DNA of 63,275 nt, the filler included, from Rhabdomonas costata (Eukaryota), in assembly GCA_019059605.1 (NCBI GenBank). It is 47 parts of 47 records of this genome, joined end to end, with 100 filler letters (N's around TTAATTAATTAA, not from the genome) between each part and the next. Parts side by side here need not be neighbours in the genome. Positions count along the whole stretch, not along the records: positions 55,290 to 56,537 come from JAHMHO010021981.1; positions 56,638 to 57,885 come from JAHMHO010021982.1; positions 57,986 to 59,231 come from JAHMHO010021983.1; 44 more parts are not named here. One strand, written 5' to 3'. The notes beneath the pieces were generated by a model. The model did not search any database. It saw only the letters and a list, made by a program, of their open reading frames with translations, and had not been told where the DNA came from. The position numbers were made by a program, and so were the translations under genes. Each line of letters begins with the position of its first letter. The first letter of the stretch is position 1. This document shows, one piece after another, positions 462 to 60,130 of this stretch.

Positions 462-1249
462 TGACACACAAAACTCTGCAGAAACGAAGGAGCAGAGAAA
501 CACCAACGGAAGCGATATTTCTTCAGAAAGAGGTAAATATCCCTATTCTATTCTTCTTCAAAATAGGAGGTGGGGATGGCCACTCTAAATGGAACGATCT
601 GAGAATGTTTCAATTACTCTCAAATCGATTTCAGTTTTGCAATCCTGGGTACAGCTCGCGACAAAATGCCAACGGGCTTTTGACAGACAAAGTTTACTAA
701 TGAACAGAGGCGCGGGGGCCTCGGAGACGGGGACGCTGCCTGGGACTTATATCTGGGTCCTCTGGCGCAAACACAAAGCATGGCTTTCGATTCCGTTTCC
801 CATGTCCATTTTCTCCTTTCCACGCCCTTTCTGGAACATTTCGCCTTGGCCCGGAAAAGAGCATGTGCAAGCTGAAACACAATCACCACAGATGTAGAGA
901 GGGGGTGGGGAGATGAGGTGGATTCCTTCGCAAAGAAGGCCGGACGTCACCGGACGTCATCAAAGCCAGTCACTCCGGCGAGCAAGAATAACGGAAAGAA
1001 TGGCTTCCCCGGGAGGTTTTGGCACCAGTTCCATGCCGAGGTCAGCCGCCCATCAATGCAGCTGCCGGCGTCCTCCATCGTGTCTCCACCAGAGCCATCA
1101 AAGCCATGCCTGAGCACCCCCCCCCTCCCTTAGTCTCCATTGCTGCTATGTCCATGGCAGGCGACCGGCCTACAGAAATCGACAGCTGACAAAAGTGAGG
1201 TGGCAACCAACATCATTCACCCCAAAAGTACCAGCTCACACCAACCCAA

Positions 1250-13581: not shown

Positions 13582-13608
13582 CGAAAAAATGATTACACTC
13601 AGTAATGT
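13582..13608 (-). other. Spliced-leader-exon-like sequence, copy 1 (ACATTACTGAGTGTAATCATTTTTTCG)
   Basis: Shares the CTGAGTGT core, the TTTTTTCG 3' end and its length with the Euglena gracilis SL exon as recalled. 24/26 identical to the copy at 58804-58829. Confidence 0.75.
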
Positions 13609-56074: not shown

Positions 56075-58803
56075 GTGCCTCTCCCGGTTTTAATTAATTC
56101 TCCCTGTCTGTCTTCAAATTCATTTTCCCCGTAACTTTTTTTAACTTAGGTAAGTGTCACCCGGAAACTCAGAAAATGGTATGTGTATTCGAAGTGTGGT
56201 GTGTGTATTCGAAGTCTTTTCAGCCTATAGAAATGCCGCTGTCTGGGGACATGTTAAGTGATGAACCCGGACAGTTTTCTTGACTGGGAACCTAAAAGGC
56301 AGTTAGATATGGGATGCTGCGAAGAGACTACAAGGCGCGATTTTTCCCGGGTGATTCGTTGAGTGTATTGATCTTTTGAAGAGAATTGTCAATTCTCTAA
56401 CCGGCTGTTTTGTTGAGAAGGTAGGTAAAGATAGGGTATAAAAACAGTCATTCTGATTTTACGGTGTAGCGTACTTTATTTTAACTCTAATCACGCTTTT
56501 TTTAATCACGCTATGTTCTCGGATCATAAAAAAAACANNNNNNNNNNNNNNNNNNNNNNNNNNNNNNNNNNNNNNNNNNNNTTAATTAATTAANNNNNNN
56601 NNNNNNNNNNNNNNNNNNNNNNNNNNNNNNNNNNNNNGTTTGTGTGGAACAGAAAACCCACAGGCATTGCCAAATGGCAGGTGTGATCGTGGAAACAGGA
56701 TCCAGAAGAGATTGGCGGTGAGGGGACCCCGCTGTGCAATAATTCTTCCGACGGTGGGGCTTTCCTGATTTACTCAGTGTCGCTGTTTCGACATCTTGAG
56801 GAGCAGCAGAGGGCGACACAGCGGTTAACGGACAACCTGGTTCAAATCGGTTTTGCCGTTCGACGTGGGATTACCACTGAAAAAAGTTAACAATCACGCC
56901 AATCTGTTCACACTCACATCAGTCGGCCGAGCAGCGGGCAGGCCTCCGCCCTTAAACTGATGATGACGCACAAACACTAGTTTTTAGCCGGTAGAATTCG
57001 TGCCAAAAGCTCTAGCAGCTCAAATAAGACACCCATCCCCTTCTGTCATAATCGGATTGTACCCGGCTCTCCTCCAATCCTTCTCCCAAGCACCAGGTCA
57101 AGTGGGCACGCAGGACTTGGTGCAGTGAACCTACAAACTGATCACTGGAATGGGCCTGGACCTGAACAATTTGGACCAGGCCCTGCCGCTGACCCCAACC
57201 GTGCGTCACTCTACTCCTCATAGATACCGTCCCCATCCTCTCTCTAGTTGATATTTCCCTTCTTCCCAGTCAGTTCAATTTATTTGCGTGTCCTGCGTGT
57301 CCACTTGACCAGTGGGGAGGATTTTTGGCCTTTTCCTGTGAATATCTCCTTTTGGGGGTGGGGGTGGGGGTAATTCAACAGCAGCATAGGGCATGCCCGC
57401 AAAAACGGGTGCCACTGTTTTGGTGGCATGCAGCACTGCCAGTTCTGTGACAGCACTCGACCCCAGCCCCGCTCACGCGCCACCAGCCAAGCCCCAACTT
57501 ACCATGAAAATAGCCCATCACACAGCGCCCGTCCAGCTCAGCCCGCAGCCACTCCAATTCAGCGCACGCCACGCAGCCAGCCGCCACAGCCCGGCTCACA
57601 ATATCTCTATTAGCAAAATCAACGTGTGGTTAGCGGGACCCGAATATCCCCTGAAATTAGAAGGGAAACAGAAAAGCAGGAGCTGGGTGGACATGCTGAC
57701 TGCAACGAAGCAAACGAACTTCAAAACTCACCTTAGAATAACAAACGAAAGCGGGTGAGGGTCACAAAGCCGCGGACCTGAGCCATAACTTTACTCAGCA
57801 TGTCCACGGTGAGGGCCTGCACTTGCGCCTGCGAGGCCGAAGAGGCCGCCATCATCGAGCTCCACGAAAGCTCCACCGTACGCGTNNNNNNNNNNNNNNN
57901 NNNNNNNNNNNNNNNNNNNNNNNNNNNNNTTAATTAATTAANNNNNNNNNNNNNNNNNNNNNNNNNNNNNNNNNNNNNNNNNNNNGTGTTTTTTGTGAAT
58001 CGCTTTGTCATGCAATATTCGCGCTATCTACTGTTAGTCAAGTTCTCGGTTTTCAACCTCAACTCAAACGGTGACGACCCTCTGGGGTGTTGACAGACAT
58101 TTTTTATTGCGGGATACTTAAAAGCATACTTTTCGTTTTTGAATTCTACATAGCCAAAAAGCTGTGAATTGCGTTCAGTTGGATGTGAGAAACTCTGAGA
58201 AACTCTTGTGATTGTGGTGCTTCGACCGATCGGCCTTGACTTCCGCGTGTTTTTCAAATTTGAATCACCTCTTCGAATCCCCCGCTTATTTGTGGAATTC
58301 AACAGTTGTGATCATTTTACGTTGGTTTACGTTGGACTTGCTGTTCAGCCTACCCGGGACCTATGAAGACGTGCTTCCAGTAGACACCGCTTGGCGTGAG
58401 GGAAAGCGTCACCTCGAGGGTGAATTCTCACAAGTATGGGTGCAGCGGTCTTGTGCCATCGGACTGCGTGACATGAGTGTGTTTGGAGCAGTGGAATCCA
58501 CCAGTAGAGGGATGAAGAGGCAAGGTCCCTTTTTTCTCTGACGGTTTTGACGCCTTGTGGCGGTGCAGGCTGCCGGGGGGTTAAAACGCGGGGTTAAAAC
58601 TTTATAGTGAGCAAAGCAGAAAACCGAATTACCTTACTTTCAGTGCGACACTCCTACGTTTTCACCCTGCAGGTTTGGTAACCTGACGCAGCATTGCTAT
58701 TATTCTGCTTTTTTGGGTGGCGTGAAAGTCATAAAAAAAGGAAACCTGGCCCTCAACCACAAGAAAAAGTAAACTACCGCAAAGCGTCAGCAGGGTACCA
58801 AAC

Positions 58804-58829
58804 CGCAAAAATGGTTACACTCAGTAATG
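58804..58829 (-). other. Spliced-leader-exon-like sequence, copy 2 (CATTACTGAGTGTAACCATTTTTGCG), followed by GT
   Basis: 24/26 identical to copy 1, which is on an unrelated contig. Confidence 0.72.
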
Positions 58830-60130
58830 AAACAATCAGGAAGTGGATGTTTAGCCACAATGCAGCAAGAAAAATTACCTTGTACGGACCGTGACCGAAA
58901 GTAGTGGGAAGAGTGTTATATGTTTCCTTTTCCTTTCGCCCCATTTTTGGCTCGACCGTGGGAGCCATATTCACTTGTCAAATGCCCTTCGTAGGGTGGC
59001 CCTGCTGGGAACGATCACGCTTATGAGGACAGGTGTGCCATGCCCTCTCGCTTTTGTTCCCTATTCTTGAAATTCGTCAATTGATTCGCCATTTATATCC
59101 CATTCCTATTCCCGAACGCTCACTCTGCTTCACTGACGGGAGTGTGTAATTTTTTTCTCACAGCTCTTCGACATCGACCAGGTCTCCAACTGAAATGCAC
59201 AATGAGATGACGCGGGCAGCCACCACCTCAGNNNNNNNNNNNNNNNNNNNNNNNNNNNNNNNNNNNNNNNNNNNNTTAATTAATTAANNNNNNNNNNNNN
59301 NNNNNNNNNNNNNNNNNNNNNNNNNNNNNNNTGTGGTGGTGATTCCGGTGAACTCCAAGAGGATTCAACCGGCACAGTCTAACCTCTTGGAGTTCACCGG
59401 AATCACCACACAAATCAAAGGGAGGTCTCACGAACAACGCTCGATGACAGGCCTTCACGAGGATTGCTTCAAAAAGGTTTGAAAGGCATCACTGCAGCAC
59501 GCTGCCAACACAGACAAAGAGACGGTCATTCGGCATACGTGGCGTAAGGTTTCCTTTCTCTGCTTGTTGGCGAGACCCTGGACATCGGCCAACTGACGCT
59601 GAATTTTCTGAATCAGAAACATCAAACACACACGTGAGCATATAAGTCACCACAGAGGACGTTTTTTTCTCGCCGGCGGTGTTAGGGTTTACTTATCTCT
59701 TTGAGAGATCTTACTCAGTTTGATGCCTTTGACCTTGCCGGCACACCGCCCAATCTCTTCGTCCTCCTATCCGAGTGGGCCTTCATCAGATGCAGGCTAG
59801 TCACCGGAATATCTCCTGGGCTCACTTGTGCGGTATTCCGTGAGTCTCACAGTAGCATTGGGGTTGTTGTACGCTTGGCCTCGCGGAAGTTTGGTTGGGG
59901 TTTCGGGATCCAACTTGCCATTCGTGGAAGCCTCCGCCGGTGCGGTCAGCTACCGATATATTGATGGCATACCCTTTAGTGCACGTTGTCTTCAGTTTTA
60001 CGAAGCTCATGGTGGCGGATCTGGTCTTGGAGTTGGTGACGGTGTGACCAAAAAAGGAGAAAACTACTAAAAGAAGAACATATACAGCCTATCAAACGGA
60101 GGGTGATGTGAACCGCAGTGGCCACGTGAC

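Follow-up and report, generated by a model that had tools for sequence, protein, structure and literature searches.

What is a spliced leader (SL)-like word doing at an isolated site in the genome of the euglenid Rhabdomonas costata, with a GT directly behind it and, behind that, a segment whose two ends can pair with each other? The locus that raises this question lies on the minus strand of a 63,275-nucleotide (nt) stretch of R. costata DNA, referred to here as the window. A first-pass annotation had read it either as a dispersed SL RNA gene or pseudogene, or as a cis-encoded leader linked to exons downstream through a structured intron. The window consists of 47 pieces of ~1,248 nt each, joined by 46 identical 100-nt linkers (N runs around TTAATTAATTAA), and holds 58.6 kb of real genomic DNA once the linkers are set aside; the R. 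costata genome is described as a draft with an N50 of 1,194 bp (PMC8219788). Because the window is a chain of unrelated contigs, only the piece at 57986-59231 counts as true context of the locus, and any synteny across the linkers is artificial. We put the chance at about even that a dispersed SL RNA gene of a rhabdomonad euglenid has decayed here and left a non-functional remnant.

The leader word and its surroundings

The word itself, CATTACTGAGTGTAACCATTTTTGCG, is a 26-mer at 58804-58829 on the minus strand, as established by reading the sequence and comparing it with known leaders, and it is followed without a gap by GT (58802-58803), the first bases of a 5′ splice-site pentamer GTTTG. The SL-like exon and donor GT of the first-pass annotation (58829-58804, then 58803-58802) were thus confirmed base for base. 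When up to three mismatches were allowed, SL-like words occurred twice in the window, compared with an expectation of 0.00. The other occurrence, which we call copy 1 (the locus under study being copy 2), is an exact 27-nt leader at 13582-13608 on the minus strand, then GG, on a contig that ends 98 nt downstream. The annotation had spoken of a 'second' SL-like exon, and another copy does exist (13608-13582), but it is not a neighbour: it sits on a different contig, unrelated to the piece at 57986-59231.

The copy 2 word is 24/26 identical to the leader of copy 1 and to that of nine copies found in environmental contigs, from which it differs by T16C and T24G. Both substitutions are absent from these 10 other copies, although the scan pattern permitted both. 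Judged by this 24/26 identity, the word would not match the leader on the species' own messenger RNAs (mRNAs). The published R. costata spliced leader of 27 nt (PMC8219788) differs from copy 2 at 4/27 bases and from copy 1 at a single one. Directly 5′ of the copy 2 word, base 58830 is a T in place of the A that begins the full 27-nt leader.

To place the word among related loci, we scanned metagenome contigs for the leader, with the two variant positions left free, and recovered eight loci (L001-L008) with nine copies, all of which carry the canonical bases; a leader scan of viral contigs gave no matches. L001-L003, with four copies, have the layout of a textbook SL RNA gene: the leader is followed by GTATA and by three hairpins, with AATTTTTGA placed between hairpins. 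For L001, the fold is stable (z -3.03; 0/200 shuffles as stable). L004, L005 and L007 have in common GTGAACCCTCC, a variable hairpin and AGCCG, each then followed by an open reading frame (ORF); their splice-site pentamer is GTGAA. In L006 and L008, the leader is joined to non-GT sequence (AC and AA respectively), and an ORF follows.

A covariance model was built from L001-L003, three nearly identical sequences with the same leader as here. A perfect leader word alone scores 14.6 bits in this model. L004, L005 and L007 reach 28.8-31.2 bits and thus begin SL-RNA-like, since they score 14-17 bits above the leader alone. The mRNA-type junctions gain only 0-3.7 bits (L006, 14.6; L008, 15.4; copy 1, 18.3). 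Copy 2 scores 6.6 bits for the word alone and 18.7 bits with its context, a gain of ~12 bits that is nearer to the SL-RNA-like loci than to the mRNA-type junctions, while the total stays below the 28.8-31.2 bits of the former. With this three-sequence model, the match has an E value of 0.15 over 87 kb and of 0.0021 over the contig alone.

Copy 2 thus shares with euglenid SL RNA genes a 26-27-nt leader followed by GT. Its position outside an array also has a precedent, since dispersed SL RNA genes are reported for E. gracilis besides its tandem SL-5S arrays (PMC2784804); a decayed dispersed copy would therefore be a known kind of object. Much of what lies behind the GT is different. The pentamer is GTTTG, and not the GTATA found in L001-L003 and given for the E. 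gracilis SL-RNA in PMC11170887, which lists GTGTG for conventional introns. By the SLIDR criteria (PMC7986045), an Sm site should lie 20-60 nt after the donor. The patterns AT{4,6}G, [AG]AT{3,6}G[AG] and AC?T{4,6}G had no match in the 204 nt after GT, so that the Sm site which would go with an SL RNA gene found no support (0/3 patterns). A U-rich element, TACTTTTTCTTG, at 58760-58771 on the minus strand (+33..+44) looks Sm-like by eye and matches none of the three patterns; the SL RNA model places its ACTTTTT at the model's 3′ end. Further on, a T7 run at 58733-58739 on the same strand (~65-71 nt after GT) may mark where a ~97-nt transcript ends.

Likewise, the stable set of stem-loops expected of a ~100-nt SL RNA was not found in the first ~100 nt. 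Folds of the first 101-102 nt gave z values of +0.63 and +0.77, with 147/200 and 157/200 shuffles equally stable; a 10-bp interrupted stem sits just after the splice site. No Rfam family reached its gathering score in the window or in L001-L008, and the single match in the contig is at chance level (E 2.5). A model scan downstream of the paired segment found no SL RNA 3′ half. An intron-only nhmmer profile of L004, L005 and L007 returned 39 hits in the window up to E 1000, none of them at the locus, and alignment of the locus to L001-type introns gave a score that 58-70/300 shuffles reached. When the 140 nt after the word were aligned locally with the eight environmental post-leader sequences, seven of the eight comparisons stayed at shuffle level. 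The exception, L005 (score 24; 2/300 shuffles), is one of 16 comparisons and matches +88..+116 of L005, out of register, and we treat it as unproven. The upstream flank is also unlike that of L001-L003. A further possibility raised earlier, that the downstream part is simply the ordinary SL RNA intron, was therefore not borne out, at least for the two environmental intron types that go with the same leader, to which no similarity was detected.

The contig offers little else. Its 10 ORFs gave nothing below E 0.1 against Pfam, and an 82-aa (amino acid) ORF on the minus strand and a 109-aa ORF on the plus strand had no homologues among proteins of near length. The contig contains no transfer RNA gene, and only two tandem repeats, of 20 nt, were found. 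This lack of coding potential or homologue fits non-genic DNA.

In a decayed SL RNA gene, the leader word and the donor GT would have survived, while the Sm site flanked by hairpins, the GTATA region and the stable fold would be gone or may never have been present. Such a locus would no longer donate its leader, because everything that an SL RNA needs downstream is absent. The inverted repeat described below would then be incidental, or else a small insertion or duplication of foldback type next to the former splice site, rather than an intron signal. As to the earlier 'dispersed SL RNA gene or pseudogene', it is thus the pseudogene that is best supported (24/26 leader, GT kept, ~12-bit context gain); the working gene is set back by the missing Sm motif, the lack of a stable fold and the GTTTG pentamer.

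Several observations weigh against a decayed SL RNA gene. The model match alone is not significant at E 0.15 over 87 kb, and the ~12-bit gain comes mostly from the GT, which closes stem I, and from a 7-nt U-rich match. In the alignment to the model, copy 2 lacks stem II and has 2/7 non-standard pairs in stem I. No similarity of the post-leader sequence to either type of environmental intron was detected, and a young pseudogene with a 92%-identical exon should keep some intron similarity, unless the intron of this species differs. The GT after the word could also be due to chance (~1 in 16 by our own estimate), and copy 1 is a leader word without GT in the same genome.

We also considered, and rejected, two further likenesses to SL RNA genes. 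A third degenerate leader at 58647-58622, as in a tandem array, had an alignment score that 222/300 shuffles reached and scored 0.8 bits in the model. Short blocks seemingly shared with the GTGAACCCTCC family (ACCCT, GAGGGCCAG and TTTTAT) were discarded on the result of the profile search, which missed the locus among its 39 hits.

The paired segment behind the donor

From the GT, a 137-nt segment runs to a CAG at 58669-58667 (58667-58803, minus strand); sequence, fold and duplex predictions agree that it can form one long imperfect hairpin. The 5′ arm of the inverted repeat (58784-58806) takes in the final 3 nt of the SL-like word together with the 20 nt that follow; the 3′ arm (58669-58689) terminates in the TGC of TGCAG. 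A repeat search delimited the arms slightly differently, as 58672-58697 and 58779-58804 (26 nt, 77% complementary). The RNA duplex of the segment ends has a predicted energy of -28.0 kcal/mol and comprises 11 pairs (58806-58796 with 58680-58669), an internal loop and 7 pairs (58790-58784 with 58689-58683). Its helix begins three bases within the leader word, in a +1/-7 register. A GTAAGG follows at 58637-58632, 29 nt beyond the CAG. The 137-nt GT...AG segment, its inverted-repeat ends, a pairing register that differs from +4/-6 and the downstream gtaagg had all been described correctly in the first-pass annotation.

How unusual is this pairing? The fold of 58660-58830 has a z of -2.11 against dinucleotide shuffles, with 4/200 shuffles equal or better, so the predicted stem does beat most shuffles. 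Yet among 4000 25-mers drawn at random from the window, 183 (4.6%) had an equally good partner 55-325 nt downstream. When the region downstream was shuffled by mononucleotides, 13/1000 shuffles matched the pairing strength; end-to-end closure at exactly this segment length occurred in 13/1500 genomic windows, and 15% of genomic windows as long as the hairpin equalled its overall minimum free energy. The composite of GT, hairpin and CAG is only mildly unusual, because AG near helix ends is common. Collectively, the pairing is moderately beyond chance, and the leader word is far beyond it.

The T24G substitution touches both the word and the hairpin. It creates ATTTTTG, an Sm-type motif, within the leader word, which is the only AT5G found at the locus; it also lengthens the hairpin by two pairs and produces the TGC flanking repeat. 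A tandem duplication of 13 nt, CGGGGGGTTAAAA / CGCGGGGTTAAAA (plus strand), occupies 58574-58599, ~70 nt beyond the GTAAGG. An amplification chimera is an unlikely source of the inverted repeat, since the arms are imperfect (77%).

Other readings of the locus

Among the alternatives, a relic leader is unlikely but well worth considering. The word would then have arrived as the 5′ terminus of an RNA, either an mRNA or a retroelement transcript, that was first trans-spliced and later retroposed; the GT behind the word would be fortuitous and the rest of the sequence a decayed transcript body. Homology among the two window copies and the eight environmental loci does start and stop at the leader, as this would predict. 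Junctions of the required kind exist, since copy 1 continues with GG, and L006 (AC) and L008 (AA) lead to ORFs; the latter two contigs may, however, be DNA or assembled transcripts. The 5′ end is also imperfect in copy 2, where the first base of the 27-nt leader is not kept (T for A), and the first two bases differ in L004, L005 and L008. Set against this are the one-in-sixteen coincidence of a GT right after the word, and the ~12-bit context gain, which exceeds the 0-3.7 bits of the three mRNA-type junctions. Nor did the 820 nt downstream contain an ORF, a poly(A) tract or a protein homologue. Specifically, the leader strand downstream had no ORF of >95 aa, Pfam hit, homologue or A-tract of >6, a criterion that would miss old decayed copies.

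Dinoflagellates offer well-documented examples of relic leaders that arose in this way (PMC5585692, PMC6050394 and PMC12014239). In the text available from our literature search, relic leaders from retroposed trans-spliced RNAs were not described for euglenids. Copy 2 resembles the dinoflagellate relics in being a dispersed copy whose homology to other copies is confined to the leader, and differs from them in that GT follows and that no ORF or poly(A) is present. Copy 1 may itself be such a relic, left by a retroposed RNA. It has A at position 10, where the published leader has G, and TTTTTAG precedes it. Its bases +3..+25 resemble +49..+71 of L005 (19/22; 2/300 shuffles), in one of 16 comparisons.

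We regard it as rather improbable that a ~133-138-nt hairpin element was inserted at the exon/intron junction of an old SL RNA-type gene, whose original intron would start at 58665 (GTGAAAAC...). The element would be bounded by the terminal inverted repeats GGTTTGGTA / TACCAAACC with TGC...TGC flanks, and the sequence does provide perfect 9-nt terminal inverted repeats, an inner 7-nt block and a 3-nt direct repeat, TGC, on either side, although a flanking repeat of 3 nt is weak evidence. The post-segment GTGAAAAC recalls the intron starts GTGAACCC of L004, L005 and L007 and GTATAAAC of L001-L003. This resemblance, 6/11 to each type by our own count, is not above chance, because the direct junction GTTTGGTACCC also reaches 6/11 against L001. 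No SL RNA 3′ half lies beyond the segment, where the profile search was null as well. The segment is like miniature inverted-repeat transposable elements and foldback elements in its length (~133 nt), its terminal inverted repeats, its short flanking direct repeat and its single hairpin. It differs from them in that no second copy occurs in the 58.6 kb and that 15% of windows match its fold energy. A 24-nt direct repeat (58858-58881 / 58612-58635) was examined as a target-site duplication and rejected, with a score reached by 119/300 shuffles.

It is doubtful indeed that the locus is a dispersed SL RNA gene which, though divergent, still works and donates a variant leader (C16, G24) by trans-splicing. 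The leader word and GT are present, and the U-rich element at +33..+44 lies inside the 20-60 nt Sm window; it loosely resembles a long flatworm Sm site quoted in PMC7986045. The T7 run would give a ~97-nt unit, and a 10-bp interrupted stem lies just past the splice site. But the element fits 0/3 Sm patterns, the fold is at shuffle level, and GTTTG stands in place of GTATA. Moreover, the variant is absent from the nine environmental copies though the pattern permitted it, and the flank is unlike that of L001-L003.

Only a very small chance is left for the cis-encoded leader of the first-pass annotation, in which TTTTTGCG would be joined to GGTGAAAACG by removal of the 137-nt hairpin-closed segment, a state between cis- and trans-splicing. 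Transcription would start at or near 58829, and the donor GTTTG, which agrees at 4/5 bases with the GTGTG of conventional E. gracilis introns (PMC11170887), would lie nearer to the consensus of conventional euglenid introns than to the pentamer of SL-RNA. GT and CAG do lie at the hairpin ends. A parallel is provided by L005 and L007, in which the junction CG/GU pairs with GCCG(G) just before a CAG, 46-49 nt downstream and ahead of the ORF, but these are two homologous loci and the trinucleotide is a frequent one. As noted above, 4.6% of random positions pair as strongly, and the tract that precedes the CAG at our locus is A-rich, not C-rich.

The segment also fails to conform to known intron classes. 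Nonconventional euglenid introns are defined by pairing of +4, +5, +6 with -8, -7, -6, usually CAG/CTG (PMC4770533), and in E. gracilis their consensus has CCAGG at +3..+7 together with CCTG at -9..-6 (PMC11170887). The segment is like euglenid nonconventional and intermediate introns in that its ends pair and that its GT-AG borders are those of the 'conventional/intermediate' subtype (PMC4770533). It differs from them in its +1/-7 pairing and in the absence of CAG(G)/CCTG at the defining positions: in the GT...AG frame, +4/-6 is T/C and +6/-8 is G/A, and the +4/-6 register fits only with the 5′ border shifted to 58807, which gives T at +1. No CAGG occurs near the 5′ end, and CCTG lies at -7..-4. 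Milanowski et al. conclude, moreover, that GT-AG introns with a stem of this kind are ordinary conventional introns (PMC4770533).

Finally, the putative next exon between CAG and GTAAGG (58638-58666, minus strand; 29 nt) has stops in all three frames when read directly. No coding exon is recognisable on either side of the segment, and since no coding region or homologue was found in the contig, downstream or elsewhere, there is no gene for the leader to lead. With a stem in the top ~5% genome-wide, neither register nor consensus in place and no exon, the cis-encoded leader with a structured intron thus received no positive support. We give as little credence to its variant in which an SL RNA gene was captured as a 5′ exon, or a twintron-like SL RNA gene is restored by removal of an inner intron.

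Dispersed leaders and reverse transcriptases in euglenids

The environmental loci add a context in which leaders are found next to other genes. In the contig L007 (1-4380), the leader occupies nt 8-32. Behind it come an SL-RNA-like start (28.8 bits), then a leader region of ~196 nt and finally an ORF of 1,237 aa. This ORF has a reverse-transcriptase domain (E 7.6e-17), with R2 proteins as its best solved relatives (E 7.7e-4), and by eye a C-terminal CCHC and a PD-type endonuclease motif. Its layout means that leader plus GT can head something besides a free SL RNA gene. Retrotransposons of the CRE/SLACS/CZAR type sit in trypanosomatid SL RNA genes, and L007, a contig that may be DNA or an assembled transcript, is a candidate SL-gene-associated euglenid retrotransposon reminiscent of the trypanosomatid CRE clade. 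Copy 2 is like these elements by context only, through the leader and SL-RNA-like start that precede the reverse-transcriptase ORF in L007, and differs from them in that neither its contig nor the window has reverse-transcriptase or ORF homology: when the ORFs of L004-L008 were compared with the window by tblastn, no match fell below E 0.1, and Pfam searches likewise detected no reverse transcriptase or endonuclease.

The remaining environmental contigs differ in their organization. L003 carries two canonical SL RNA gene copies head-to-head, ~375 nt apart, at 642-666 (minus strand) and 1040-1064 (plus strand). L001-L003 have no Rfam 5S rRNA at gathering score, so their SL RNA genes lie outside an E. 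gracilis-type SL-5S unit. In L004, a shortened second leader-like word (~885-901, plus strand), again followed by GT, lies 66 nt after the first (819-843) and shortly precedes a 190-aa ORF; CA-type microsatellites are present at both ends of this contig. Positions 1-13746 of L005 are mostly bacterial-looking, with tightly packed ORFs (NAD-dependent DNA ligase, RACo, acetyl-CoA hydrolase and DUF2400), and from 13081 a GC-rich tail bears the leader, so that a chimeric assembly is probable. On the minus strand of L006, an 11-nt stretch at nt 17-27 after the leader repeats part of it in inverted orientation (TGATTACACTC) and would allow the 5′ end to fold back, and a 554-aa ORF with C2H2-like motifs lies further downstream. 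In L008, a 314-aa open frame (2-946) runs into the leader word (939-963), and a second ORF begins 32 nt beyond it; this arrangement would reflect either two transcripts joined in assembly or a leader-bearing insertion within a gene.

As it stands, the finding means little, since stray decayed copies of small-RNA genes are ordinary. Cis-splicing of the leader, if true, would make the locus a rare observed intermediate between cis- and trans-splicing, and the layout of L005 and L007, if real, would tie the idea of a cis-encoded leader to SL-gene-associated euglenid retroelements. Beyond the single locus, the presence of two leader words within 58.6 kb of contigs that are in essence a random sample hints, small as this number is, at many dispersed leader copies in the R. 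costata genome. Such copies could stem from SL RNA genes and pseudogenes, or from retroposed trans-spliced RNAs. Among the environmental loci, the same leader stands at the head of a textbook SL RNA gene in some and of a reverse-transcriptase ORF in another, which raises the testable idea that euglenids, like their trypanosomatid relatives with the CRE clade, carry SL-gene-associated retrotransposons.

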